Below the pieces are notes generated by a model that ran no database searches, was not told the DNA's origin, and worked only from the letters and a program-made list of their open reading frames with translations. 64,000 nucleotides of DNA, from positions 9,208 through 73,207 of the forward strand of contig JAFLBY010000001.1 of the NCBI GenBank assembly GCA_017302855.1, in the 5' to 3' direction. Each line of letters starts with the position of its first letter. Position 1 is the stretch's first letter. The translations under genes were made by a program, and so were the position numbers. The stretch is from Candidatus Kapaibacterium sp. GTDB lineage: Bacteria > Bacteroidota > Ignavibacteria > Kapaibacteriales > UBA961. This document shows, one piece after another, positions 22,171-52,796 of the stretch.

Positions 22171-25100
22171 TTAATTCTTTATCAATGTTTGTGATAGTTG
22201 TTTGCCCTGTTCTGTTATGATGTTGATAATATAATTCCCCGTTGCTAAGTTCTCCGTGTTAATTGGTTTAGTATATGACGAATTTCCTTGTGAGACGATT
22301 CTCCCCTCTACATCAATTATTGTATAGCTGAAATTACCTTCAAGATTATCAGGGGAACTTACGGTAAATGAATGTGATACAGGATTGGGAAATACTTGAA
22401 CGAGATTATCTTGTACATCAAAATCATGCAGTGCGCTTATGACCGCTATATTAAAATCTTTCCAAACAGGTGTCTTTTTATATACATCTTGAGTTCCTTC
22501 GGGTACATATAAAATTACATTCGGTATAGTAACATTTTCAAAAACATTGGCGTTTATTTCTAAAGGCATTTTCCAATGTACCGTTACCGATGCCAATGCC
22601 GAACAATCAGAAAATGTTCTGTCACCAATGCTTGTCACAGACTGGGGAATGTTTACCGAAGTCAAGCCCTTGCACCCTGCGAATGCCTCTTCTTCAATAC
22701 CTGTAACATCATACGTAATAGAGGCATTTGTTATAGATGTCGAAACATTTCCATTGCCTGAAATTGATGTGGAGTTTACTGTTGCCGGAATATTTGCATT
22801 GCCAATAAACGAAGAATTTTTTGCCACCGCCACAGTAGGTGGAATTAATGATGTCACTGTGTAAGAGATATCATCATTTGTAAATTTTTGCCCAAAAACT
22901 TCGATTTTAAAATCTTTCCAAACGGGCGTAGTGCTGTAACGTTTTCTGGCTGTATCCGGTACATATAATGTTACTGCCGATAATATTACATCGTTAAAAA
23001 TATTGGCATTTATTGCCAAGGGGGTTATCCAATTCACGGTTACCGATGTCAAACCGGCACCTGCGAATGCTTGTTGCCCAATATTCATTACAGAATTAGG
23101 GATGTTAATCGAAGTCAAACTGCTACACTTTGCAAATGCACTTGCACCAATACTCTTAATAACATTAGGAATGCTTACCGATGCCAAATTGCTACACTCT
23201 GCGAATGTAGTTGCACTAATAATCGTTACAGAGTTAGGAATTCTTACAGAAACCAAGCCCTTACAATTTTTGAATGCGGCTGCACCAATACTCGTTACTG
23301 AATTTGGAATGCTTACAGAAGCCAAGCCCGTACAATTTTCAAATGCATTAGATCCAATTCTCGTTACGGAATATGTAATTGATGCATTTGTAACAGTCGC
23401 CGGAATGTTTGCACTTCCGACAAAGGAAGTATTCAATCCTACCTCTACAGTAGGCGGACTTGATGATGTAATTGTATAATTGATGTCATTAACAGAGAAA
23501 GTTTGTTTAATTACTTGTATTTTAAAATCCTTCCAAACAGGTGTAGTTCTATAAGCGTTTTGAGTTTCGATCGGCACATATAAAGTGTCCATTGATAATG
23601 GACCTGTAAATACATTGGTACTGATTTCCAAAGGTTTTGTCCAATTAACAGTGACCGATGTCAAGCCGGCATCTAAGAACGCACCTTCTTTAATATACTT
23701 AACAGTGTTAGGAAAGATTACTGACCTCAAACTGGAACAACCTTTGAATGCATCATAACCAATACTAATAGCAGATTTAGGGATATTTACAGAATGTAAG
23801 CGAAAACAGTTTTCGAATAAGCCGTCACCAACCCTCGTCACATGATCAGGAATATTGATCGAAGTCAATCCGTCACAACCGGAGAATGCATAATCACCAA
23901 TACTGATAACCGCATCAGGAATATTAATCGAAGTCAATCTGTAACAACCGGCAAATGCACCGTCACCAATACTTGTAACCGCATCAGGAATATTGATCGA
24001 AGTCAATTCTCTACAACCGGCGAATGTACTTTCACCAATACTTGTAACTGAAATAGGAATACTGATTGAACTCAACCTCCAACACTCTGCGAATACACGG
24101 CTTTCAATAGTTGTGATCGAATTAGGAATGGAAAGAGAAGTCAATCCGGTACAATATGCGAATGTACTTTCACCAATACTTGTAACTGAAATAGGAATAT
24201 TGATTGAAGTCAATCTGGTACAACTGTGGAATGCACTGTTTCCAATAGTGGTCACTGAATTAGGAATGGTAAGAGAAGTCAATCCGGTACAATATGCGAA
24301 TGCACTGTTTCCAATATTCGTCACCGAATTACCCAAAGTAACCGAAGTTAAGCCTGTACAATGTGCGAATGCAGATTCACCAATATTCGTCACCGAATTA
24401 CCCAAAGTAACCGAAGTTAAGCCTGTACAAACATTAAAAGCAGCCTCACCAATATTCGTCACCGAATTACCCAAAGTAACCGAAGTTAAGCCTGTACAAT
24501 GTGCGAATGCAGATTCACCAATATTCGTCACCGAATTACCCAAAGTAACCGAAGTTAAGCCTATACAATGTGCGAATGCAGATTCACCAATATTCGTCAC
24601 CGAATTACCCAAAGTAACCGAAGTGAATCCGGTACAATTTTCGAATGCTGATTTTCCAATAGTATTTACCGAATGAGGAATAATAATTGAAGTCAAGCTG
24701 GAACAACGTGAAAAAGCGTTATCACCAATACTCAATACTGAATTACCCAAAGTAACCGAAGTGAATCCGGTACAATTTTCGAATGCTGATTTTCCAATAG
24801 TTTTTACTGAAGAAGGAATAATAATCGAAGTCAAGCTGGAACAATCTAAGAAAGCGGCATCACCAATACTCGTTACTGAATTACCCAAAGTAACTGAAGT
24901 CATACTGTCGCAACCTTTGAATGCATAATCACTAATCTTGATAACAGAATTAGGAATGTTCACCGAAGTCAAACCTGTACAGTTTTGGAATGCATAACCT
25001 CCAATACTTGTGACCGAACTCGGAATGATAACCGAAGTCAAACCGGAACAACCTGAGAAAGCGGCATAACTAATACTCATTACCGAATTACCAATGTTCA

Positions 25101-26040
25101 CCGAGGTCAGATCTTTACAATTGTTGAATACATTGTCACCGATATATGTAACAGAATTGGGAATATCTAATGAAGTTAATCCGGCACTTGCGAATGCATA
25201 CGCCCCAATAGTTGTCAAGGAATTAGGAAGGTTAATAGATTTTAATCCGGCTCTTACGAATGCATACCTCCCAATAGTTGTGACCGAACTCGGAATATTT
25301 ACTGAAGTCAATCGTTGGCATTGTTCGAATACACTTTCTTCAATAGTTTCTACCGAATTTGGAATGTCTATTGAAGTCAAAGCGGTACAATATGCGAATG
25401 TACGGCTTCCAATAAATGTTACCGAATTAGGAATACTTACAGAAGTCAAGCTGATACAATTTATAAACGCACTCCCAGCAATAGTTGTGACCGAATTAGG
25501 AATGCTGATTGAACTCAACCTCCAACACTCTGCGAATACACGGCTTTCAATAGTTGTGATCGAATTAGGAATGGTAACTGAAGTCAAGCCGGTACAACCT
25601 GAGAAAGCGGCATCACCAATACTCATTACCGAATTAGGAATGGTAATTGAAGTCAAACTTGAACACCCGTAGAATGCACGATTTCCAATATTTTTTACCG
25701 AATTAGGAATGTTTGCTAATCTCAAGCTTTCACAATTAATGAAGGCATGATCACTAATATTTTTTACCGAATTAGGAATGATAACATATATCAATGCTTT
25801 GTTATATGCGAATGCACTACTTCCAATACTCGTTACACCATACGTAATTGATGCATTTGTTACAGTAGCCGGAATATTTGCCATGCCGGTAAAAGAATAA
25901 TGCGTAGCTACTTCTACAGTAGCCGGATTCATTGATGTTACTTTATAATTAATGCCATCAACTTTGAATTCTTGCCCAAAGACATTGATGTGGGACATAA
26001 TGATTGCTAACAAGGCAAGGCAAAAAATTTTCATATTCAT
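22171..26040 (-). CDS. Very large BspA-type leucine-rich-repeat surface protein with a T9SS C-terminal sorting domain
   Basis: 1289 aa. Signal peptide; dozens of IPNSVTSIGxxAFxxCxxLTSV repeats; three FxVDGINYxVTS modules. C-terminal VFPNPVSHSFTVS...GNYIINIITEQGKQLSQTLIKN matches the Por/T9SS CTD. Confidence 0.8.
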   Translation of the reverse strand: MNMKIFCLALLAIIMSHINVFGQEFKVDGINYKVTSMNPATVEVATHYSFTGMANIPATVTNASITYGVTSIGSSAFAYNKALIYVIIPNSVKNISDHAFINCESLRLANIPNSVKNIGNRAFYGCSSLTSITIPNSVMSIGDAAFSGCTGLTSVTIPNSITTIESRVFAECWRLSSISIPNSVTTIAGSAFINCISLTSVSIPNSVTFIGSRTFAYCTALTSIDIPNSVETIEESVFEQCQRLTSVNIPSSVTTIGRYAFVRAGLKSINLPNSLTTIGAYAFASAGLTSLDIPNSVTYIGDNVFNNCKDLTSVNIGNSVMSISYAAFSGCSGLTSVIIPSSVTSIGGYAFQNCTGLTSVNIPNSVIKISDYAFKGCDSMTSVTLGNSVTSIGDAAFLDCSSLTSIIIPSSVKTIGKSAFENCTGFTSVTLGNSVLSIGDNAFSRCSSLTSIIIPHSVNTIGKSAFENCTGFTSVTLGNSVTNIGESAFAHCIGLTSVTLGNSVTNIGESAFAHCTGLTSVTLGNSVTNIGEAAFNVCTGLTSVTLGNSVTNIGESAFAHCTGLTSVTLGNSVTNIGNSAFAYCTGLTSLTIPNSVTTIGNSAFHSCTRLTSINIPISVTSIGESTFAYCTGLTSLSIPNSITTIESRVFAECWRLSSISIPISVTSIGESTFAGCRELTSINIPDAVTSIGDGAFAGCYRLTSINIPDAVISIGDYAFSGCDGLTSINIPDHVTRVGDGLFENCFRLHSVNIPKSAISIGYDAFKGCSSLRSVIFPNTVKYIKEGAFLDAGLTSVTVNWTKPLEISTNVFTGPLSMDTLYVPIETQNAYRTTPVWKDFKIQVIKQTFSVNDINYTITSSSPPTVEVGLNTSFVGSANIPATVTNASITYSVTRIGSNAFENCTGLASVSIPNSVTSIGAAAFKNCKGLVSVRIPNSVTIISATTFAECSNLASVSIPNVIKSIGASAFAKCSSLTSINIPNSVMNIGQQAFAGAGLTSVTVNWITPLAINANIFNDVILSAVTLYVPDTARKRYSTTPVWKDFKIEVFGQKFTNDDISYTVTSLIPPTVAVAKNSSFIGNANIPATVNSTSISGNGNVSTSITNASITYDVTGIEEEAFAGCKGLTSVNIPQSVTSIGDRTFSDCSALASVTVHWKMPLEINANVFENVTIPNVILYVPEGTQDVYKKTPVWKDFNIAVISALHDFDVQDNLVQVFPNPVSHSFTVSSPDNLEGNFSYTIIDVEGRIVSQGNSSYTKPINTENLATGNYIINIITEQGKQLSQTLIKN
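24311..24655. repeat. Five near-identical 69-bp tandem repeats inside the LRR gene (one 23-aa LRR unit each); more diverged copies continue to ~24900
   Basis: The unit ccaatattcgtcaccgaattacccaaagtaaccgaagttaagcctgtacaatgtgcgaatgcagattca recurs at 69-nt period. Confidence 0.6.
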
Positions 26041-26708
26041 ACAACGAATAACTGATACCTACTTCCAGATAATTTTACGTCGCTGTTTCGGTAATTCCGA
26101 CTATGTATTTGTCTAAACAAAAAACTGGAAGCTCAACATTACTTTCTTTGCAATACCGATAACATGTTCTCAACAAGAACAATTCCACATTGTGATGGAA
26201 AGTAAGCTATTCTTATCGTTTAACCGATATAAGTCCCAATAATCAATGCAATCTAAATCATAGAAAGTTCGCTTGTCTGTTTTCTCAATAGTTTGAGCAA
26301 AGCACTCAGTCGAAAATATAATTATGAGAAGGACTGCACTGTTTATAGTTTGCCTACGCTTGTTGTTCGCGTGGACGCATTGTGCTTTCCCGTATCGCGA
26401 AACTACAAAACTTTAGCAACACAGTCAAAAATCTAACGATAATGTTGTAAACAACAAAACATTTTGTGCAGCATAGCATCATTATATGCGCTTGTTGTCA
26501 TTGAGTAAAGCTTATTTGTTTTGGATAAATTTGTCGTAAAAATTGTTTGAAGCCGGGTGTCTATAAAAATTGTTAAAATTACGTAGTTTGAAAAGTATGG
26601 TGTTGCGCTTATGGTTTCAGTGTTTCAGATTTCACTACATTAAGAAAATCTCTTCAATTGCCTTTGAGTATTCCTCAATAGACAGAGTTATAATAAAAGC
26701 ACGTATTA

Positions 26709-27794
26709 TTATTGTCTCAAAAAATCAGCGAGTAGTCTGTGAAAATGATGTGTTCCTTGTTCGCGATTCACAGAAAATCTTCCTGTTGAATACACTCTTG
26801 ATTTGAGACCTTTATATACATTTTCCACCACGAATTCATCTTCGCGCTCTACTTTGTCCAACATTGCTCCCGCCCCCGAATGCAATTTGCTCTCATCATA
26901 GAGATATGTAATAAAGCTAACTTTTGTTTTATCAATGGTTATTGGTTTCACGATATTGATAGATAAACCCCAAGGATAAAAATTGAACATCATATTCGGG
27001 AATATCCAATAATAATAAGCGGCAATGGATTTACCATAATCGGGATGTCCTTCAGGCAAAATGAAACATTCCTCACCATCTTTTGCATATCCGATTTGCA
27101 CATTGAAATAATCATATAATTCTGTGGTATATAGCCCATAATCCAAAACTGAGTTCAAATCCTGATGCACGTACGGAATATGAAATCCCTCAAGATAATT
27201 GTCGCAATACAATGCCCAATGCGCATTCACAAGATATTCTTTTCCTAAAGTCGGTTTATGAATAAATTCATCCAGAGGCAAAAAACCAATGCGTTCATTC
27301 ATGATGGAAAGAATATTACGCAGTTCGAATCGGGGAGAAATTCCCGTAAATAAAAATGGACCCCATTCCACCAAATCAAATTGATGTAAATTATCGCATG
27401 GTCTGGGGAAATTCTCAGTCAAAGAAAATTCAGGCATGGATACAAATGTTCCATCTTGTTTGAATCTTCTGCCATGATACATACACGTGAGAAATTTGGC
27501 TGATCCGGGGTTATGCACCACGATATTTCCACGATGAGTACATACATTGGAAAGACATCGAAGAGTGTCATCCGCAGAACGAATTAAAACCATTGGCTCA
27601 TTCAAATAACTATCTAATAGATAGAATGGATACGTGCTATTCGGTAAACTATTTAGACGTTTATCCCCAATCCATTGCCATGATGAGGCAAATATTCGAT
27701 CTTTCATACTCTCAAATATAGTGGTATCATGATAAAATGAGCCGGGCAATGTTTCGGCTTTGCTGATATCCGGGTCTATGTAGAGTTGTTTCAT
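26709..27794 (-). CDS. Rieske [2Fe-2S] non-heme-iron oxygenase, alpha-subunit-like (PaO/CMO/KshA-type)
   Basis: CTHRGNIVVHNPGSAKFLTCMYHGRRF Rieske motif; C-terminal catalytic domain with EGFHIPYVHQD. Confidence 0.7.
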   Translation of the reverse strand: MKQLYIDPDISKAETLPGSFYHDTTIFESMKDRIFASSWQWIGDKRLNSLPNSTYPFYLLDSYLNEPMVLIRSADDTLRCLSNVCTHRGNIVVHNPGSAKFLTCMYHGRRFKQDGTFVSMPEFSLTENFPRPCDNLHQFDLVEWGPFLFTGISPRFELRNILSIMNERIGFLPLDEFIHKPTLGKEYLVNAHWALYCDNYLEGFHIPYVHQDLNSVLDYGLYTTELYDYFNVQIGYAKDGEECFILPEGHPDYGKSIAAYYYWIFPNMMFNFYPWGLSINIVKPITIDKTKVSFITYLYDESKLHSGAGAMLDKVEREDEFVVENVYKGLKSRVYSTGRFSVNREQGTHHFHRLLADFLRQ

Positions 27795-27942
27795 TGTTCT
27801 CTCTCGAAAATAATTACCGTCACCGTAGGATTAAATATGCGAAAATGTCAGGAGCGTCGAAGTCCCTAAGGGGTTTTGCACACTTGTTGCCTTGAAGTAA
27901 AGAGTTTATCTTCTTCAAAACTACAAAACTTTGGCAACTAAA

Positions 27943-40068: not shown

Positions 40069-40243
40069 TCATTATTTTCATTGTGATGATGCCATTTGTC
40101 GGGATGAAAAAATCCCGTCATTATGTCATCATACGAGAAAAAATACATCCACCCCGTCCTTCGGACACTCCCTCAAAACGGGAATTTTGAAATTCAGCGC
40201 GTCATGGAATCCCGCAGGGATGACATTATACTAGCAAATCTTT

Positions 40244-40273
40244 CCAAAAAACCTTCCCCTCCATCGGAGGGGT
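40244..40273 (-). terminator. Rho-independent terminator (minus strand) downstream of the CTD remnant and STAND gene
   Basis: CCCCTCC-gat-GGAGGGG hairpin followed on the minus strand by GGTTTTTTGG. Lies in a locally GC-rich segment. Confidence 0.4.
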
Positions 40274-40336
40274 GTCCGCAGGACGGGGTGGGTTCATTCC
40301 ATCAGACGCAGTCTGACGGGGTGGACGCATTTATCA

Positions 40337-40567
40337 CTACCTCACCACCATAAACAGAGCTTTTTGTCCTGTGGCGGGAATGCGTGCACAATACATACCT
40401 GTCTGCGATCTGCTTATGTCTATCGAATGTTCATATCCCTGATACATAAGCGAACCCTGCATATCGGCAATGAAGACCAAGGCATTATCTGTACCGGTAG
40501 GCGTGTGGTTGTGATGTGTTGGTATTTTAAACTTCTTGGTCATGGAGTTTGTTGGAATTAATTTCAA
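40337..40567 (-). pseudogene. Orphan T9SS C-terminal sorting-domain remnant (3' fragment of a disrupted secreted-protein gene)
   Basis: The 76-aa ORF ...ALVFIADMQGSLMYQGYEHSIDISRSQTGMYCARIPATGQKALFMVVR matches the T9SS CTD pattern. It has no upstream cargo domain, and its 5' end overlaps the STAND gene stop in another frame. Confidence 0.35.
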
Positions 40568-43500
40568 ACATCGATAACTCCAAGAAATTTATAAAACTTT
40601 CATAGAATGAATAGAAATTAGTTTCTATTTTATAATCATTTATAAGTTTCAGTGTGTTTCCGGGAAAAAAATACAAACTATGAAAATAGTTGATAGTGTT
40701 CACTTTTCCAACAATAGCATTAAATAAAATTGGTTTTATGCTTCTTTTAACTTCTTTTTTGGGAAACAACTGAAATAGTTTTAAATCCGACAACGAAGAG
40801 TGTAATCCATCAGAATAAGATGCTACTTCATCTGGCTTTAATTTCAGTTCGGAAATTATTTTTTTGTCATTTATAGTAAGTATTCCGTTGTTTAATCGTG
40901 ATTGACTATCTTGTCTGTATGAGTTGTTGTGATCTGAATATTCAGTATAAGGAATTCCAATGTTCTTAAGAGACTTTGTTTTTTTATTCCGTTTTGAAAT
41001 ACGAACTCTGAATTTGTTAACTTCTAATATGTCTCTAAACTGATTACATCTATTTGAACTGAGAATGTTTTGAATATCATTAAAATCTATTTGCCTATCA
41101 TATATGTTATGTTGAAGTAATCTTTCTATTGATAGATTAAAAATACTATCTGGAAAACAGTTAATATGATTTGTAGGTAAACTAAACCAAGATACTTCTA
41201 ATTTGTTAATATCAAAATACTTTACCAAGATGTCAATTATACTCGTGGAATGTTGTTCAATATATTCTTCTAAAAGATGACGTACTCCCTTTTCTGATAA
41301 AGTCTGAATAGATGCTATTAGTTTAATAGATTCTATTTCTTTAACAAGACCCTTTTCTTCAAAAACTGAAAGTATGGTGGGGATAAATAGAACAGAATAA
41401 TCCTTTCTTTGATAGTATTTTGTCCAAAAAGTAGAAATGCTCGAGATATCAATGGTTTTATTTAAATGCAAGTTCAGACGAATATAATTTAATATTTCAA
41501 TCCATAAGTCAAAACTACCCAATTGACTGTTTTTAATGATAAAGTCTGCTAGTGATAAATTTAAGTAATCGTTTGTTCTTGCAACATGGCCAAGTGCCAG
41601 TATGTTGCGTCTCGCATCTTTTAATATAGACTTTGCAAATGCAGCGGGAATACGTTTCTTTTCAAGAAATTCTCGTAAATATAATAAGGACTCTTCATCT
41701 TCAGTATAAAAGTATTTATTAATAGTCATTTTTAAGTCTAAATAATCAGATTGTAGTTTTTCGTGGATGAATAAATTTTCCAACACAAAGGTCATTTTTT
41801 CGACGAATTCATAGTTGTCGTTAGATTCTATCAAAGCTTCAATTTCTATATTAGATAGTGCAGATTTGTGTGCGTTAAAAAAGGTATCTTCTTTTGTTGT
41901 TTCGTCTAATAAATTTTCAAAAAAACTGTTTGTATTATAATGGTCATTACTAGAAAGATTAAGCAACAATGAGATATTCCCCGTTTTAATAAAGTAAAAC
42001 ATACCAAAAAGATAGTCTGAGCTTGTAAAGTCTTTCTCTGTATATCCATGAAATAACAATGATTTTATATAGGTGTATAAAAATTTATTGTTAGTTGAAA
42101 TATAATCCCTTGATATTATATTGATAATTAATGATAAATCATAATAATCTTTCACATCTAAATCATTGGGTGAAAGTTCAAACAATGATCCTCTAAGTTG
42201 TCCATAGAATGATTGGATAGCCTCAAAATCTACAGTACCACTAACAAGAACTTTAAACTCAGAAATGTTTGAGAATCTGAGAATGATTTCTCGTTTCATT
42301 TCCATATCTAGATAGAAGAAATCAAACCTTGTAAGAAATGCAACTTCTGAGTTAAGGATTGAGTTGTAAACAATCATTTTTACTGTCTTTTGTCGTTCAG
42401 AATAATCAATGTTTTGGTTACGTAAATAAGTATTAAAGCTGTCGTGCAATAAAGAAACTCTGTTTAGCTTCTTTTCAAATAAATAAGGGTACTCACTTAT
42501 AAATTCTGAAACACTAACTCCTAATTCTTTACCTAAAAATTTTTCTATTTCATGGTGCATGATAAAAGAACGACAACAAAGAAACAATGTCAATAAAGAT
42601 TTTGTGTTTACCTTGTCTTTAAAAATTTCATCATAATACTCGTCTATAGTCTTTAACGTATTTAATTCAGGTAGATTGTTGTGTTCTTTATAATGTTCTG
42701 CCAAATATTTGACTAAAATAGGATAACCATCTGTAATCGAATATATGCGACTACAAACATCGTAATCGGTAATGTGAAAAAGTTTATCAAGAACCTTTTT
42801 TGTTTGCTCCTTGTTCCAATTAATAAGTTCATGTTTACTCCACTCCCATTGATGTTTCAATGGTCTGGTTAAAACTATTGTTTTACACTTTGTTTGTAAT
42901 TTTTGGATAAAGTCAATGATTTTTTTTAACTCTTTGCTATCGTAGTTTTCAACGTGGTCAATCCCGTCAATTATGACTATTTTGTTTACCTCCCATAATT
43001 TTGATAAAACTTCATTCTCATTCCTGTTAACTTGATCATTAAACAGTTTCTTCGAAAAGTCAAAGATAAAATTTGAAAACTTTAGCCTTTGATTATACTC
43101 TTTATCTTGGCTTGAAATCCAAAATCTGTAAATTATATTGTTTGGATATTCTTGAGTCAGACTATTGACAAGATGGCTTTTGCCAACTCCAGGTTTGCCT
43201 TCTATTACTATAATATTTTCAACAAATAGATGATTTCTTCCGACATCAATTGTTTGTTCGGTCAAATTGGTATCGAAAACGAGAATTGTTGGCAAATCCT
43301 TTCTCGCTATTCTAAATTTCCGCTCATCTAAACATGAATTAAAAAATCTGTTTATAATAAGTTCCCTTTCTTGGTTCAAATTGTATAAATTGGAAATTCT
43401 CTCATCAACATTTTCTCTGTTTAAAGAAACAATGTAAACATTGTTTGAAATATATGCAGGAATTCCGAATATTTCACAATTTGGCGAAATCTCGATTTGT

Positions 43501-43781
43501 TTAAAAAATATAATATTAGTGAATTGTGACAATAAATGTTTTTTGTTTTTTATAATTACTGAGTTTTCTTTGAATCGAAGAGAGTTAAGAGAAATGTCAT
43601 CAATATCTTTAATCTGGATGCAAAATTTTTCGTTAGTAGATGTTACTATTAAATCATCAAAGTGATTGTTAGCGTTTACTTCCATTTCAATTGAATCAAT
43701 ACTACGTTCAACATCCATTTTTGCTAAAAACAAAGATGTTATTTGTTTTTGATATGTGTATCCTGTATAAGCGTTTTTCAT
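40527..43781 (-). CDS. STAND-class P-loop NTPase (NACHT/NB-ARC-like), Avs-like candidate antiviral sensor: N-terminal PD-(D/E)xK-like domain plus long C-terminal helical-repeat region
   Basis: Walker A GKPGVGKSHLVNSL, Walker B KIVIIDGIDHV and TIVLTRP motifs. ~190-aa N-terminal domain with FDDLIV...EKFCIQIK (D...QxK). ~700-aa alpha-helical C-terminal half. Confidence 0.7.
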   Translation of the reverse strand: MKNAYTGYTYQKQITSLFLAKMDVERSIDSIEMEVNANNHFDDLIVTSTNEKFCIQIKDIDDISLNSLRFKENSVIIKNKKHLLSQFTNIIFFKQIEISPNCEIFGIPAYISNNVYIVSLNRENVDERISNLYNLNQERELIINRFFNSCLDERKFRIARKDLPTILVFDTNLTEQTIDVGRNHLFVENIIVIEGKPGVGKSHLVNSLTQEYPNNIIYRFWISSQDKEYNQRLKFSNFIFDFSKKLFNDQVNRNENEVLSKLWEVNKIVIIDGIDHVENYDSKELKKIIDFIQKLQTKCKTIVLTRPLKHQWEWSKHELINWNKEQTKKVLDKLFHITDYDVCSRIYSITDGYPILVKYLAEHYKEHNNLPELNTLKTIDEYYDEIFKDKVNTKSLLTLFLCCRSFIMHHEIEKFLGKELGVSVSEFISEYPYLFEKKLNRVSLLHDSFNTYLRNQNIDYSERQKTVKMIVYNSILNSEVAFLTRFDFFYLDMEMKREIILRFSNISEFKVLVSGTVDFEAIQSFYGQLRGSLFELSPNDLDVKDYYDLSLIINIISRDYISTNNKFLYTYIKSLLFHGYTEKDFTSSDYLFGMFYFIKTGNISLLLNLSSNDHYNTNSFFENLLDETTKEDTFFNAHKSALSNIEIEALIESNDNYEFVEKMTFVLENLFIHEKLQSDYLDLKMTINKYFYTEDEESLLYLREFLEKKRIPAAFAKSILKDARRNILALGHVARTNDYLNLSLADFIIKNSQLGSFDLWIEILNYIRLNLHLNKTIDISSISTFWTKYYQRKDYSVLFIPTILSVFEEKGLVKEIESIKLIASIQTLSEKGVRHLLEEYIEQHSTSIIDILVKYFDINKLEVSWFSLPTNHINCFPDSIFNLSIERLLQHNIYDRQIDFNDIQNILSSNRCNQFRDILEVNKFRVRISKRNKKTKSLKNIGIPYTEYSDHNNSYRQDSQSRLNNGILTINDKKIISELKLKPDEVASYSDGLHSSLSDLKLFQLFPKKEVKRSIKPILFNAIVGKVNTINYFHSLYFFPGNTLKLINDYKIETNFYSFYESFINFLELSMFEINSNKLHDQEV

Positions 43782-44061
43782 TAATTACAAATAATATTAA
43801 CTTCTTTCATTACTTAAATTTCTTCTTCGGTCAGTTCGTAAAGTTTCTGAACTAATGTGTCAATTTGGTCTGTTTAAGTCATCTGTGCTTCCGATGGCGG
43901 TAGATCTCACACAGCGAAGTAAACCACCGTTTGTTTCTCCAAAACTACAAAACTTTGAAAACTCAGACAAATATGAAGTTCTCATATTTCATTATGATAT
44001 AGCGTATCCTTGCTTTGCAATTCAATGACTGTCACCCTTTTCATACAAGAGGAGTGTTGAA

Positions 44062-44084
44062 TAAAAAAAGGGGCTTGCGCCCCT
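44062..44084 (-). terminator. Rho-independent terminator of the sugar-nucleotide operon
   Basis: Minus strand GGGGCGCAAGCCCC followed by TTTTTTT, immediately after the gmd stop. Confidence 0.55.
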
Positions 44085-44087
44085 TGT

Positions 44088-47910: not shown

Positions 47911-47969
47911 ATATAGTCCTTACTATGTGAAATTATTAACTGTCAGAATCCCGAAAAGATATATAATCC

Positions 47970-49034
47970 TTAGGCTTCAATCAATTCATTTACTTCTTCA
48001 TTCATTACTTCTTCATTCATTACTTCTTCATTCATTACTTCTTCATATACACAACTGTTTACCAAAGCATTTGCAATGTGCCACATTAAGACAGGTGGAA
48101 CAGCATTGCCAATTGCTCTGTATTGTCTATTCTCTGAAACACTGTCTAACGTAAATGTTAGCGGAAAAGATTGAATGTTTGCTGCTTCTCTTGGTGTAAA
48201 TCTTCTGTAACGTTCACCAACCATTAATACAGGGTCCGTTCCATTCAAACTGACTTTTGCAAGATGTGCACTGATTGTGTTACAGGGCTGTTCTAAATCT
48301 TGTACTCGTCCTTTGTTCATCTTTTCTCTTACTCGCAACATTCCATCAATGGCTCTTTGGCTGAAAAACCATTTTTCATCTTTGTGAGCTTCTTTATCAA
48401 TAACCTGTTTTAATTTTACTTTTGAACCGTTCAATGTGTTTGGTCTTGGAAATCTAAAATTAAAATAATCGTCAAAATCTCTGAAGCCAACAATAAAAAT
48501 GCGTTCGCGTTTTTGAGGAATACCAAATTCTGACGCATTTAACAGCTTAAAATGAATGTGATAACCTGCTTTCTCAAATTCGTTTACAATCATAGGGAGT
48601 GCTTTTCCTTTGTTTGCAGAAAGTAAACCTTTAACATTTTCTCCAATGAAAAAACGTGGCTGTTTTTCTTTCAGAATTTTTACCATCTCAAAAAACAATT
48701 TTCCTCTATCGTCTTTGTAGCCTAATCTGGGTGGGTTCTGTGCACTGATAGAAAATGATTGACAAGGAAAACCACCTAACAGAATATCGTGGTCAGGAAC
48801 TTCGTTTGGTATGATAGCTCTAACGTCTTTTATCTCACATTTATGCTCAAAATTATCGTTGTAAATTTTTGTTGAGTAACTATCGTTATCGACGGCATAC
48901 ACAACCTCAAAAGGTAAGGCAGCGTAATGATTGTCAAGAAAATCGAAATTTCCTTGAATACCTAAATCCATTCCTCCACAACCACAGAAAAGAGATGAGA
49001 CCTTTAATTTGTTATTTCCAGCAGTTTGTGCCAT
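47970..49034 (-). CDS. DNA (cytosine-5)-methyltransferase (M2 of the RM operon) with a C-terminal EEVMN peptide-repeat tail
   Basis: Motif I LFCGCGGMDLG, motif IV GGFPCQSFS, ENV motif. C-terminus (EEVMN)x3-4. Confidence 0.85.
   Translation of the reverse strand: MAQTAGNNKLKVSSLFCGCGGMDLGIQGNFDFLDNHYAALPFEVVYAVDNDSYSTKIYNDNFEHKCEIKDVRAIIPNEVPDHDILLGGFPCQSFSISAQNPPRLGYKDDRGKLFFEMVKILKEKQPRFFIGENVKGLLSANKGKALPMIVNEFEKAGYHIHFKLLNASEFGIPQKRERIFIVGFRDFDDYFNFRFPRPNTLNGSKVKLKQVIDKEAHKDEKWFFSQRAIDGMLRVREKMNKGRVQDLEQPCNTISAHLAKVSLNGTDPVLMVGERYRRFTPREAANIQSFPLTFTLDSVSENRQYRAIGNAVPPVLMWHIANALVNSCVYEEVMNEEVMNEEVMNEEVNELIEA
47985..48050. repeat. 15-bp tandem repeat (ttcattacttcttca, 3 perfect copies plus 1 variant) at the 3' end of the methyltransferase gene
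   Basis: Seen directly; in-frame, 5 aa per unit. Confidence 0.6.
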
Positions 49035-50446
49035 TGTCCTGATATTTTAGAAAATTCAACAACTAAGTTTTTATCAACTTTTAAATTACCTAATTTGAAT
49101 TGTTTAAATGGGTTTTGAATAATAAAGATGTTCTTGCTCTTATCGTTAATTACCAAGTAATAGACAAAATAACTGTCCCCTAATGTTTCTGCACTGTCCC
49201 ATTCGTTAGGCGTGAGTTTGAAACGATTATTGTTAATTGCTTTTCGTGATTTAGTTGTTTTTACTTCAATATATCGTTTTTTTTGAGGTATTTCGATACT
49301 TTGTAGGTCATATCCAACACCAAGAGGTGTCGGGATTTTGTTTATTAAGTGTTGACGGTTTGAACCACCTCTTGTTCTCAAATATTCATGTGCTAAAATT
49401 AACGTTTCACCATAATCCCCAAATATTTTTGTAGGTACTTTTCTATCTCCTTTGATGCGTGAGTAATACTCTTGAATAAGAGTAGATATGTTCTGTACTT
49501 CTTGTTCTTCTAAATGAGGGGCAAACGCTTCAATATTATCAAAGTTATTTACATAATCAAACCAAAGCTCTTCTAGTTTTCCAATTTCAGAATTTTTTGT
49601 TTCTTCTTCTAAATTGTAATATCTGTCATACTCACCAAACCATGTATTGTTTTGCAAGTGAAAGTTAATTGCTTCTATGTTTTTGTGATTCAGATAATAA
49701 TAATAACCTGTTCCTTTATGGTGCAAAAGATTGGCTAAAACCATGTAATCCAAAATGTCGCCAGCGTACCGATTAGTATCACCTTTTGATGGAAATTCGC
49801 CTGTTCGTTCGTTTCTTAATGCTTCGTAATTATATTCGTATTCCACTTTGTCTTTTCTGTTCTCTAGAATGAGATTTACAACTTCGTTTGCTTGCCTTTT
49901 TCCTGTTGTAACTCGAAGGTCGAAGTAAGCGCATTGCGTGAGTTCTTCTACTGTTAAGCTAAATGGTTTTCCTGTAATTTTTTCTCCCTCAACAAATAAA
50001 TTAAGTATGAATTGACAAGGTCTAAATTTTATACCAGCTTCAATTTGCTTAATTGTATTTTGAGATTTAATGTGTCCACCTGGGTATTGAAATGAAAACA
50101 AAAAGTAATTAAAAAATTCATCCAAATATTGATTGTTTGCAAGCCTCTTTGCTGTTAAGCCGGGTTCGGAGAAACCGTTCTTTTCTTGAATAAAACCAAA
50201 CAACGCTGAAATTTCAGTCCGCCAATTATCTATTGTCTTTTGTGCTGCTGTTGTGTTTTTTTTAAAACCAAACAATACCTTGTTTAATTCATTTTTAAAA
50301 TTGTTTTTTGATAAAACGGGCATTTCTGAAATTGTTGTTGCTACATACAATAAAACTTCTTCTACGTCATTTTTGAAACGTGGTCTTACATGATGTAATC
50401 TAAAAAAATACTCATCAGGTATTCTGTATGATTTTATTCTGCTCAT
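49004..50446 (-). CDS. Putative type II restriction endonuclease (C-terminal DUF3883-like PD-(D/E)xK domain)
   Basis: 480 aa. C-terminal ...GYDLQ...KKRYIEVKTTKS...FKLTPNEW...YFVYYLV is a D...EVK nuclease core. Sits between two m5C methyltransferase genes with overlapping start/stop. Confidence 0.5.
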   Translation of the reverse strand: MSRIKSYRIPDEYFFRLHHVRPRFKNDVEEVLLYVATTISEMPVLSKNNFKNELNKVLFGFKKNTTAAQKTIDNWRTEISALFGFIQEKNGFSEPGLTAKRLANNQYLDEFFNYFLFSFQYPGGHIKSQNTIKQIEAGIKFRPCQFILNLFVEGEKITGKPFSLTVEELTQCAYFDLRVTTGKRQANEVVNLILENRKDKVEYEYNYEALRNERTGEFPSKGDTNRYAGDILDYMVLANLLHHKGTGYYYYLNHKNIEAINFHLQNNTWFGEYDRYYNLEEETKNSEIGKLEELWFDYVNNFDNIEAFAPHLEEQEVQNISTLIQEYYSRIKGDRKVPTKIFGDYGETLILAHEYLRTRGGSNRQHLINKIPTPLGVGYDLQSIEIPQKKRYIEVKTTKSRKAINNNRFKLTPNEWDSAETLGDSYFVYYLVINDKSKNIFIIQNPFKQFKLGNLKVDKNLVVEFSKISGQWHKLLEITN

Positions 50447-51480
50447 AAGTATTTCATAATTTCATTTGCTAACACAGCTGCTAATATTGGAGGAACAGCA
50501 TTGCCTACCTGTTTGTATTGGCTCGTTTTACTTCCTAAAAAAATGAATGAATCTGGAAAGGATTGTATTCTCGCACTTTCTCTAACAGTAGGCACACGAT
50601 TGTATTTGTAATGAAAATGATGTCTGTGTCCTGTGTCAATAGTAAAACTTGGCTTCTTGCTGTTTAGTCTCGTCCAAGCAATATTTACATTCCTTGTTTT
50701 TCGTAATTCTTTAGGCAAGTCTTTATAGTTTCCGCCATCGGGAACTAATGAAATAATATGTGTTGTTTGCTCACTATGGTTAGTTGTTTCGTGATTGTAA
50801 ATACCCTTTGACCCTTCTCTAATTAATCTTTGATAATGAGATTTAGGTTTAGTTGTATATTTTGTCCCGTTTTCTAACGAATTTTTAGGCAAATCTGAAA
50901 TTGCATCTTTCGTATTTATAGGGGTTTTAGTTGTTGGTTCTGGGAAAACAAACTCTTTGTTGCTCTTTGTTCCAATAAAGAAAGCACGTTTTCTATTCTG
51001 CGGAACTCCATAATCAGAGGCTAATAAAATTTTGTAAACTACGGTGTAACCAAGTTTTTCAAAATCACTGAGAATTGTCTCTTTTACAATACCTTTTCCC
51101 ATAGAAATAATGTTTGGCACATTTTCCATTACAAACGCCTTAGGCTTGTAAAAACTAACAAAACTCAAAAATGATTTGTAAAGTTGATTGCGCTCGTCAT
51201 CAATTATTCTTTTTCCTGCAATAGAAAAACCTTGACAAGGAGGACCTCCAATAATCACATCTATACTTTTTATTCCTGTTTTTTTTGAAATTTCTTTCGC
51301 TGTCTCCGTAAATAAATCGGCTACAATTCCTTTTGCATTTTTGTGAGTGTTTTCAAAAGTTACAATCGCATCTTTCCAATTGTCAATTCCCAAAAGTACA
51401 TCATAGCCAGCTTCGATGAATCCATAAGAAAGTCCACCGCAGCCACAAAACAAGTCTATTACTGTTGGCTTCTTTTTCAT
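50443..51480 (-). CDS. DNA (cytosine-5)-methyltransferase (M1 of the RM operon)
   Basis: IDLFCGCGGLSYGF, GGPPCQGFSIAGKR and ENVPN motifs. Confidence 0.85.
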   Translation of the reverse strand: MKKKPTVIDLFCGCGGLSYGFIEAGYDVLLGIDNWKDAIVTFENTHKNAKGIVADLFTETAKEISKKTGIKSIDVIIGGPPCQGFSIAGKRIIDDERNQLYKSFLSFVSFYKPKAFVMENVPNIISMGKGIVKETILSDFEKLGYTVVYKILLASDYGVPQNRKRAFFIGTKSNKEFVFPEPTTKTPINTKDAISDLPKNSLENGTKYTTKPKSHYQRLIREGSKGIYNHETTNHSEQTTHIISLVPDGGNYKDLPKELRKTRNVNIAWTRLNSKKPSFTIDTGHRHHFHYKYNRVPTVRESARIQSFPDSFIFLGSKTSQYKQVGNAVPPILAAVLANEIMKYL

Positions 51481-51499
51481 TTTCTAACTTGATAATGTC

Positions 51500-51808
51500 T
51501 CATTTTGTGTTCATATTCTTCAAATAGTTTACCTTTTCTTCTGCAACCACCAATGTTTCGGTAGGGCAGTTATAAGCATACATCTTTTTTGCAAATTGAT
51601 CTCCAAAATATTCAATCTTTAATCTTTCAATATCAAGACTAAAAACTATTGCTAATTTGGTTAATCGCTTTTCGTCAAACTCTCTCTTCCCATTTTCGAT
51701 TTTGCTAAGATTTGCAGAATCAAGGTCAAGACGGAATGCAAGTTGCGTTAAAGTCAAGCCATTGTCTGTTCTTAGTTTCTTGATGTATTCACCAAAAGTT
51801 GCCTTCAT
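51500..51808 (-). CDS. XRE-family HTH regulator, candidate RM controller (C) protein
   Basis: FGEYIKKLRTDNGLTLTQLAFRLDLDSANLSKIENGKR HTH_3. First gene of the C-M-R-M operon. Confidence 0.6.
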   Translation of the reverse strand: MKATFGEYIKKLRTDNGLTLTQLAFRLDLDSANLSKIENGKREFDEKRLTKLAIVFSLDIERLKIEYFGDQFAKKMYAYNCPTETLVVAEEKVNYLKNMNTK

Positions 51809-51826
51809 AAGATTATACCTCGAAAC

Positions 51827-51843
51827 TTGTCAATCATTGACAA
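51827..51843. promoter_or_regulatory. 17-bp palindrome TTGTCAAT-C-ATTGACAA 19 bp upstream of the controller gene (candidate C-box operator)
   Basis: Seen directly; perfect inverted repeat around a single central base. Confidence 0.45.
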
Positions 51844-52002
51844 ATTTAACAATAGTTTTTGGTTAAACAATCTCTATTGATTCTGCTCTCCTGTGTTCTA
51901 TCACCTATGTTTGTCTAACTGTGCTGTTCTTTCGGATGACCAATCTATTCATATTATACCCCTCAATAACCATTTGCCCCAGAAAGCGGCTCATTTCTAT
52001 TA

Positions 52003-52096
52003 TCCATCGGAAGAAATAGGGCTTTGTTTCGGTCATCTTCGCCGCCAATCGGAAGAAAAGTAGTTTCGTTTCGGTCATCTTCGCCGCCCATCGCCT
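52003..52096. repeat. Imperfect ~44-bp direct repeat x2 (core tttcggtcatcttcgccgcc)
   Basis: Seen directly. Confidence 0.5.
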
Positions 52097-52242
52097 TGTA
52101 TGAATCAGATTCTCTTTTGTATAGGGTAAAAAGGGGCTGAGATATATCGAAAATGCAATGAGATGAGGCAAAGTTTTGGCTTTATGAACCGAAAACTGCC
52201 TGTTTTGCCCTAAAAACGCGGAAAGTTGTATAAGAAATGGCG

Positions 52243-52557
52243 GTTTCCTGCTCAATTCAAGTGGTTTCCTGTTCAATTCAAGTGGTTTCCTGTTCAATTC
52301 AAGTGGTTTCCTGTTCAATTCAAGTGGTTTCCTGTTCAATTCAAGTGGTTTCCTGTTCAATTCAAGTGGTTTCTTGCTCAATTCAAGTGGTTTCCTGTTC
52401 AATTCAAGTGGTTTCTTGCTCAATTCAAGTGGTTTCCTGTTCAATTCAAGTGGTTTCCTGTTCAATTCAAGTGGTTTCCTGTTCAATTTAAGTGGTTTCC
52501 TGTTCAATTTAAGTGGTTTCCTGTTCAATTTAAGTGGTTTCCTGTTCAATTTAATGA
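52243..52557. repeat. Tandem array of about 14.5 copies of a 21-bp unit (ggtttcctgttcaattcaagt) with a few point variants (cttgctc; caattta)
   Basis: Seen directly. The array is head-to-tail with no spacers, so it is not a CRISPR array. Confidence 0.9.
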
Positions 52558-52796
52558 GGTTTTGCAGCATCCGATGAAGGTTTTGATACATTTCATTCGC
52601 TCTTTATGGTATATGGTCGAGGTTTTTGTGTATCCGAGAGGGGCTTCAGGGCATTTGTCTGCGTTTTTTATGAATATGATTAAGAAGATTCCTCACACAA
52701 TGCGGTTTTTTGTGCATTTGAGCGGAAGGATGAGCCATTCGTTGCAAGAGTTTGTGCATCCGAAGCAATCGTTATTGCTTGTTTTGATGTGTTTTG

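Follow-up and report, generated by a model that had tools for sequence, protein, structure and literature searches.

A candidate sigma-A promoter module recurring in front of accessory genes in an Ignavibacteria-like genome

A 22-nt motif that occurs three times in the window, by which we mean the whole 64-kb stretch of DNA analysed here, is probably the core of a sigma-A promoter module whose paralogous copies front accessory transcription units and appear to travel with transferred DNA. We note that this function is putative, as it is predicted by sequence comparison. A shared promoter was among the possibilities raised in a preliminary description of the motif, and the idea is supported in silico by the fit of the copies to the consensus, by the positional enrichment of the -7 box in the window, by an island of conservation around the core of site 1 in a diverged relative (L092), and by the intrinsic terminator that precedes site 3.

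Read on the plus strand, the three copies are GAAACTACAAAACTTTAGCAAC (site 1), AAAACTACAAAACTTTGGCAAC (site 2) and AAAACTACAAAACTTTGAAAAC (site 3), and each lies in the intergenic gap upstream of a minus-strand ORF (Table 1). The preliminary description had reported three plus-strand copies at these positions, which we confirm: a search for the 22-mer with up to three mismatches returned three matches in the window, compared with 0.00 in 100 dinucleotide-preserving shuffles. Searching the 64-kb window with an nhmmer profile for the family yielded no fourth copy. The copies do share 15 identical nucleotides, as had been claimed, but these are positions 2–16 of the 22-mer (26400–26414, 27918–27932 and 43942–43956) and not its first 15, since the first base is G in site 1 and A in sites 2 and 3. 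Similarly, the placement upstream of minus-strand starts stands, but the distances to the start codons, given earlier as 125–360 bp, are corrected to 358 nt (site 1), 122 nt (site 2) and 159 nt (site 3). The repeat similarity is wider than 22 nt, reaching 33 nt in repeat finding (family D7) and about 60 nt in alignments, and pairwise identity among the three window copies is 60%–69% over 67 nt, with only about 25–35 nt common to all three. Outside the 22-mer, sites 1 and 3 have in common a CAAA five bases past the AAC, and sites 2 and 3 have in common TTTACTTC about 15 nt downstream, on the opposite side from the AAC. The site 1 22-mer is unchanged in five strain assemblies. We read the three window copies as what are likely old, diverged paralogues of one module.

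Table 1. Positions of the three motif copies and of associated features in the window.
Feature	Coordinates	Strand	Basis
BspA-type LRR protein with T9SS C-terminal sorting domain; next gene past site 1	22171..26040	-	LRR_5/Por_Secre_tail domains
Site 1 promoter-like core	26398..26429	-	-33 TTTG 26426-26429, 20-nt spacer, -7 TAGTTTCG 26398-26405
Site 1 22-mer; partial spacer and most of -7 box	26399..26420	-	window sequence, mismatch search
Rieske / ring-hydroxylating oxygenase gene, downstream of site 2	26709..27794	-	Rieske/Ring_hydroxyl_A domains
Putative 5' leader of Rieske gene, downstream of site 2	27795..27915	-	87% mean column identity, three lineages
Site 2 22-mer	27917..27938	-	window sequence, strain alignments
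1084-aa P-loop NTPase, island cargo gene, downstream of site 3	40527..43781	-	sub-threshold NACHT/AAA matches
260-nt non-coding defence-island leader carrying site 3	43803..44062	-	strain comparison
Putative DNA methyltransferase C-terminal remnant (..IDTLVQKLYELTEEEI*), between site 3 and cargo	43814..43864	-	motif read by eye
Site 3 full promoter match TTTG-N20-TAGTTTTG	43940..43971	-	-33 43968-43971, -7 43940-43947
Site 3 22-mer	43941..43962	-	window sequence, mismatch search
Intrinsic terminator of GDP-mannose dehydratase (Gmd) gene; end of core-genome homology	44068..44085	-	terminator search, strain alignment

The organization of the copies resembles that of a Bacteroidetes sigma-A promoter. 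Such promoters, as described in work on Bacteroides fragilis and Flavobacterium, combine a -33 element (TTTG or TTG), a spacer of 17–23 nt and a -7 element, TAnnTTTG. In Chlorobi, the sister group, dRNA-seq has found a related RpoD motif (bioRxiv 10.1101/172254). On the minus strand, which is the strand of the genes, the layout of the module is TTTG-N20-TAGTTTTG, with a spacer ending in AAAGTTTTG, and it follows from this match that the conserved 15-mer consists of the -7 box and the 3' part of the spacer. Seven of eight non-orthologous family members fit a TTTG-N20-TAGTTT(T/C)G layout: site 1, site 3, a variant of site 2 in the UBA2373 genome, three copies from a sludge metagenome described below (L005, L057 and L058) and, by geometry, a fourth (L041). 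The -33 element with its 20-nt spacer is found at sites 1 and 3 and in all five related copies elsewhere, and is absent at site 2 of the window, where the spacer and -7 box are kept; the missing element is accounted for by the loss of homology to the full-length module at 27942, only 4 nt away from where a rhomboid-like gene has its stop codon. An exact TAnnTTTG box is present in six of the eight family members, the exceptions being site 1 (TAGTTTCG) and L041 (TAGTTTTT). The earlier observation that the reverse complement of the motif fits TAnnTTTG is thus accurate for copies 2 and 3, both of which carry TAGTTTTG (at 27916–27923 on the minus strand in site 2), but copy 1 departs from the box by one mismatch. 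The three window copies, as well as L041 and L057, are each oriented towards a downstream gene on their own strand. A by-eye check for ECF-sigma and sigma-54 promoter layouts gave no consistent match in the copies.

The -7 box shows the positional bias expected of a promoter element in this genome. Over the whole window, TAnnTTTG is not over-represented (77 occurrences compared with 80.6 expected), and nine boxes in sense orientation lie 15–50 nt upstream of the 53 ORF starts, where the window-wide frequency predicts about 1.1; the antisense count is three. The host organism evidently uses TAnnTTTG-type promoters. The usual distance from box to ATG in the window is 24–37 nt, which agrees with the median 5'UTR of 24 nt in Flavobacterium psychrophilum (PMC9723704). 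At the three sites this distance is atypical, being about 355 nt (site 1), 121 nt (site 2) and 158 nt (site 3), so that their orientation is that of a sigma-A promoter while their leaders exceed the short 5'UTRs (median about 24–32 nt) that go with one. The predicted leaders of about 120–360 nt are unusually long, and the promoter reading does not appear to explain them.

Compared with known sigma-A promoters of Bacteroidetes, the module presents both likenesses and differences. The two boxes and their 20-nt spacing match, the module is co-oriented with downstream genes, its host belongs to the Bacteroidota/Chlorobiota group, and the host genome shows the expected enrichment of the box. In contrast, the leaders of the module are 4–15 times longer than is typical, its spacer matches the -7 box in strength of conservation, and one copy has TAGTTTCG while another lacks the -33 element. 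Under the promoter reading, the module would span about 60–170 nt of the minus strand, comprising the -33 TTTG, the 20-nt spacer ending in AAAGTTTTG and the -7 box TAGTTTTG, a layout that the primary sigma factor (sigma-A) of the Bacteroidota/Chlorobiota group would recognize. Each copy would stand at the 5' edge of a transcription unit that is accessory or varies between strains, with site 2 leading to the Rieske oxygenase, site 1 to the region running into the LRR/T9SS gene, and site 3 to a defence-island leader and its cargo. RNA polymerase carrying sigma-A would initiate a few nucleotides downstream of TAGTTTTG, producing leaders of about 115–350 nt. We infer that transcription starts at the sites.

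Conservation around the sites in a more diverged relative suggests selection on the core. L092, whose Rieske protein is 91% identical, has kept both site 1, which reads TTGACTGTATTGTCAAAATTTTGTAGTTTCG, and site 2, which reads ..CGCCCAAATTTTGTAGTTTTG. In the Rieske–LRR spacer of this relative, 25 of 30 positions are identical across 26400–26429, compared with 6/30 and 6/30 in the next 60 nt downstream. The conserved block at site 1, TTGACTGT.TTG..AAA.TTTTGTAGTTTCG, stands among neighbouring sequence that is deleted or scrambled; about 190 nt further upstream of the core are missing from L092, and about 200 nt past the site are poorly conserved. We interpret the site 1 core island as a footprint of constraint. 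Sites 1 and 2 of L092 also show the same G-to-A difference at one spacer position, which could have come about by gene conversion from one site to the other or by co-evolution with a factor.

The genes behind the module are heterogeneous, including an LRR surface protein, a Rieske oxygenase and a defence-island leader in the window and a TPR protein elsewhere. Domain matches agree with the identities first given to the LRR/T9SS and Rieske genes, but the protein that had been called a STAND NTPase gives just sub-threshold NACHT/AAA matches; the region of this gene is low in GC (29%–33%). No tRNA genes were found in the window. For site 1, the gene served is uncertain. The last ~150 nt upstream of the LRR start codon are conserved in L092, and LRR paralogues of other strains have only about 66 nt of upstream sequence in common and lack site 1. 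Given this conserved proximal sequence and the existence of LRR paralogues without the site, the LRR gene is probably controlled from a proximal region of its own, and its promoter may not be site 1.

Site 2 shows that the core can persist next to different upstream neighbours. The UBA2373 and L073 sequences cease to match the window at 27942, where site 2 has its edge. Their element is complete: it has a -33 TTTG and, upstream, a stretch that looks like site 3, and before it come about 900 nt of AT-rich DNA and a gene other than that of the window. In a second group, made up of the window, L069, L074, L092 and many Logan contigs, the rhomboid-like gene cuts site 2 short with its 3' end at about -25. 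The -7 box and the leader are conserved in three lineages despite the differing neighbour. A search for further site 2 neighbourhoods of group B (the UBA2373/L073 type), or for strains without the Rieske–LRR block, gave nothing new, as contigs break in the LRR repeats. We rejected the possibility that the element is simply conserved vertically with the Rieske gene, as orthologues that are 81%–84% identical are found in other operons without it.

Differences in gene content downstream of Gmd show that site 3 arrived with a defence island. Strains with an identical Gmd protein have three alternative contents at this position: a STAND-like NTPase (the window and L070), the Shedu protein SduA (L094, L097, L100 and L101), or a 714–797-aa BNR/sortilin protein with a T9SS tail (L093, L095, L096, L098 and L099). 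Site 3 is found only in strains with the STAND-like and Shedu versions, which have the 260-nt leader in common, and both leader and site are absent from the BNR/T9SS strains. Homology with the BNR version ends at 44061–44063, just past the Gmd terminator, and resumes at 40497, inside the 3' end of the BNR gene; the island thus took the place of most of the BNR gene. With the island came the 260-nt leader (44062–43803) with site 3 and the methyltransferase-like remnant, which in L071 is open as a 53-aa ORF, and the cargo was exchanged later between 43803 and 40523. The strain comparison shows that site 3 belongs to an imported island. Since site 3 lies about 100 nt past the Gmd intrinsic terminator, it is placed to start a new transcript.

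Relatives of the module are rare in other genomes. An exact-pattern scan of 185,579 species-representative genomes with AAACTACAAAACTTTNNNAAC returned 59 matches, almost all of them unrelated singletons. Two matches (L018 and L023) correspond to sites 1 and 3, with near-identical flanks, in the metagenome-assembled genome 'Ignavibacteria bacterium UBA2373' (Ignavibacteriota, Bacteroidota/Chlorobiota group), so that the window derives from a close, near-identical relative of it. Exact matches in that genome are limited to these two sites, and the site 2 position has the variant AAACTACACAATTTAGGTAAC, which indicates a low-copy element and not an abundant dispersed repeat. The preliminary description had offered a small dispersed repeat as an alternative; this applies in the weak sense of paralogous low-copy modules, but two exact copies and a variant per genome do not make an abundant one. 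We rejected an abundant genome-wide repeat on these counts, given three copies in the window and two exact plus one variant in the representative genome. A metagenome scan found only orthologous loci of related strains, a scan of viral sequences gave chance matches only, and no plasmid matched the module, the only plasmid match being to the 3' flank of ermF. We found no evidence of a plasmid or phage origin.

Four further relatives came from one EBPR sludge metagenome. Three of them (L005, L041 and L057) are binned as Chloroflexota and one (L058) as Flavobacterium, and these bin labels are doubtful, the contigs being short and low in GC. The four resemble site 3 and one another over about 100–170 nt, far beyond the search pattern, and L041, L057 and L058 are 88%–94% identical over 67 nt and can be aligned down to the start codons of unrelated genes. 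The L057 module leads to a TPR protein and has a winged-helix (MarR-like) gene directly upstream, the L041 module leads to a short ORF followed by a weak TIR-domain protein, and the L058 module faces the 3' end of ermF, antisense to it. The contig of L005 breaks off within the element, and those of L041 and L058 are short, a pattern typical of repeats. Because these copies were found by an exact-pattern search, the invariance of the core 15-mer in them is partly a matter of ascertainment.

The strong conservation of the spacer raises the question of whether the module is more than a promoter. A promoter combined with an operator, in which a dedicated factor binds the conserved spacer and co-regulates the three units as a small accessory regulon, is a reading we consider unlikely. 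In sites 1–3 and in the foreign copies, conservation of the 9 nt preceding the -7 box equals that of the box, the spacer end AAAGTTTTG and the -7 box form a direct repeat (GTTTTG-TA-GTTTTG), and none of the 11 other TAnnTTTG promoter candidates in the window has the AAAGTTTTG spacer. The paired G-to-A change in L092 and the MarR-like gene next to the L057 module also point in this direction, and conserved spacer and long leaders together leave room for an additional operator. However, no regulator gene is consistently linked to the module, there is no dyad symmetry, the repeat period of 8 nt is not a helical turn, the spacers of orthologues vary (AAAATTTTG, CAAATTTTG and TAAATTGTG), the way in which the foreign copies were found favours an invariant core in them, and common descent explains a shared spacer without any regulator. 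A shared regulator does not seem to be needed to explain the data. The copies could instead be non-functional relics of an intergenic sequence that was once duplicated, promoter-like by chance in an AT-rich genome, which we regard as improbable. Their low number, the long and variable distances to downstream genes, the gene remnant that follows site 3, the ~200 nt of poorly conserved sequence past site 1 and the L058 copy with no gene to drive would all suit decay, but the core of site 1 is a sharp island of conservation where adjacent non-coding DNA in L092 was deleted or scrambled, the core of site 2 outlived a rearrangement that removed everything upstream of -25, and modules from another community keep the -33 element, the -7 box and their spacing. 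Finally, we regard it as extremely unlikely that the motif belongs to a small or structured RNA, be it the product of an sRNA gene or a cis-regulatory leader motif. Site 3 and L058 are conserved over about 100–170 nt, and the site 3 core is preceded, at a distance of 45 nt, by a sigma-70-like TTGCAA-N18-CATAAT, but Rfam gave no match at the gathering threshold or at relaxed E-values, the copies have no shared secondary structure, their fold energies do not differ from those of shuffles, no terminator follows the motif, and ~25–35 nt is all that sites 1, 2 and 3 have in common. We rejected a structured RNA given the lack of an Rfam match and of a conserved fold, and a coding sequence because ORFs over the motif are in different frames in each copy and the differences between L057 and L058 are all non-synonymous.

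The association of the copies with strain breakpoints could also be driven by recombination, with the motif acting as a site-specific recombination site or mobile cassette end (att-like, attC-like or a MITE terminus), to which we give little credence. All copies are at the edges of strain-variable segments, homology between two strain groups is lost precisely where site 2 ends in ..AAC (27942), the triplet preceding the AAC is variable, and the L005, L041 and L058 contigs end in the element or are short. At site 3, however, the motif is 100 nt away from the upstream breakpoint (44062) and 138 nt away from the downstream one (43803), which argues against a recombination site, and the junction at site 2 could equally be the product of a rearrangement in which the essential -7 part of the promoter was kept. 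No hairpin or inverted repeat is conserved among the copies (DNA-fold z-scores between -2.75 and 0.02, without a common structure), target-site duplications were not seen, and the flank homology of L041, L057 and L058 fades gradually, with no sharp end. The 20 window ORFs scanned around the sites contained no integrase or transposase domain, including integron integrases and tyrosine recombinases (IntI). Integron attC sites are imperfect palindromes that form a bulged hairpin, with the order R''(RYYYAAC)...R'(GTTRRRY). Like attC, the module is a short conserved sequence recurring at accessory-gene boundaries, with a GTT/AAC-containing core, variable neighbouring bases and one strain breakpoint at the AAC; unlike attC, it has no imperfect palindrome or bulged hairpin, a GTT precedes the AAC only in site 2 and in the reversed order, and it lies 5' of genes and not 3'. 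MITE and REP repeats are likewise intergenic, repeated, AT-rich, about 100 nt long and found on short metagenome contigs, but the module lacks terminal inverted repeats, target-site duplications and a stable hairpin, and its copies are very few (two to three per genome, with one representative genome scanned). We rejected an integron-like attC or MITE, as no hairpin, terminal inverted repeat or target-site duplication was seen and the 20 ORFs scanned held no recombinase.

With no Rfam match, hairpin or terminal inverted repeat, and no transposase domain in the 20 window ORFs scanned, the module is not explained by an IS element, MITE or riboswitch. As a promoter, it resembles the putative mobile promoters described under the term 'promoter propagation' by Matus-Garcia, Nijveen and van Passel in 2012, which were defined by at least 80% identity over 50–100 nt (PMC3488235). 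In both cases, homologous upstream sequences precede non-homologous genes, within and across genomes, and neither a transposase nor a MITE structure is present. The L041, L057 and L058 copies (88%–94% identical) are above the 80% level, whereas the window copies, at 60%–69%, are below it and keep just a ~22–35-nt core, such that the published pipeline would miss them. The module appears to move with transferred or rearranged DNA and to supply a ready-made, host-type promoter, and we infer that its copies spread as a 'portable promoter'. A broader version, in which a promoter–operator cassette moves together with accessory and defence genes among members of the Bacteroidota/Ignavibacteriota group and its spacer is read by a dedicated factor, so that new genes join a common control circuit, seems to us a long shot; under this version the module might additionally double as a homology patch for the swapping of cargo. 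The acquired genes linked to the module so far are STAND, Shedu and TIR-like genes and what may be the context from which ermF was mobilized.

If the sites are confirmed as promoters, they would provide three promoters with a clear consensus in a poorly studied, Ignavibacteria-like activated-sludge lineage in which, to our knowledge, no promoters have been mapped so far. The module would be useful for annotation and is not a novel type of element; its strong spacer conservation and long leaders are the only hints of extra regulation in what would otherwise be ordinary promoter biology. Site 3 would offer a concrete case of an imported defence island that brings its own host-compatible promoter and leader, behind which the cargo, STAND or Shedu, has been exchanged.

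The 122-nt region between site 2, the copy of the repeated 22-mer upstream of the Rieske gene, and the Rieske start codon was unusually strongly conserved in three lineages and contained a small CCCCTTAGGG hairpin. This region may be a cis-regulatory leader. The ~150 nt immediately 5' of the start codon of the BspA-type leucine-rich repeat (LRR) gene were 80–90% conserved relative to the diverged relative L092 and were partly common to LRR paralogues. This stretch has no TAnnTTTG box, the Bacteroidetes-type -7 element, and may represent an alternative-sigma-factor promoter or a leader. The LRR gene itself is composed of 69-nt (23-aa) repeats, and most short-read contigs break within it. In related strains (L073, L018), several LRR paralogues lie in tandem and rearrangements are present.

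Site 1, the copy upstream of the LRR gene, and site 2 both had an A in L092 (1393-1440 and 2737-2780) where the window has a G, changing AAAG to AAAA/CAAA immediately 5' of TTTTGTAG. Concerted change, gene conversion of one site by the other, or coincidence could each account for this shared substitution at sites 1.5 kb apart.

Coordinates and strand of features in the window
Feature	Position	Strand
BspA-type LRR gene	22171-26040	
Conserved stretch 5' of LRR start codon	26041-26190	minus
Site 2–Rieske region (putative leader)	27795-27915	minus
BNR gene remnant	40208-40497	
Gmd–GT2 interval	40333-44062	
Low-GC island	47932-51934	
Methyltransferase ORF	47970-49034	minus
15-nt tandem repeat	47990-48046	
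228-aa ORF	51905-52591	minus
21-nt tandem array	52179-52619	

The interval between the GDP-mannose dehydratase (Gmd) gene and the GT2 glycosyltransferase gene, compared across L093–L101, was a hot spot. Strains with an identical Gmd protein had three alternative contents in this slot: a STAND-like NTPase, Shedu (SduA_C), or a BNR/sortilin T9SS protein of 714–797 aa, of whose gene the window retains ~160–290 nt from the 3' end. Further along lies an island of low GC content, with genes for a BpuJI-type restriction endonuclease, its two accompanying C-5 cytosine methyltransferases, and an HTH controller protein. The island was missing from the contig (L023) of the near-identical genome UBA2373, and L100 carried a different system, DNA_methylase plus Bse634I, at the same position. 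A perfect 15-nt tandem repeat (TTACTTCTTCATTCA, ~3.8 copies) sits at the 3' end of a methyltransferase ORF.

A 21-nt tandem array of ~15–20 copies, 95–98% identical in its centre, lies mostly within a 228-aa ORF that had no Pfam match, overrunning the ORF start by ~28 nt. The alignment of UBA2373 is only patchy there, which suggests that the number of repeats varies.

Finally, we compared ermF flanks in L058 (831-933), a contig from an EBPR sludge metagenome, in L086 (Riemerella plasmid NZ_CP073240.1), and in 15 plasmid matches. On Bacteroidota plasmids, the 3' end of the resistance gene ermF had a constant 68–81 nt companion, homologous to the putative transcribed leader of the candidate promoter family around the 22-mer and terminating within that leader (..CGCCAATACG). 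On L058, ermF was followed by the complete candidate promoter module in convergent orientation; because of this arrangement, L058 may be nearer to the original context of ermF mobilisation.
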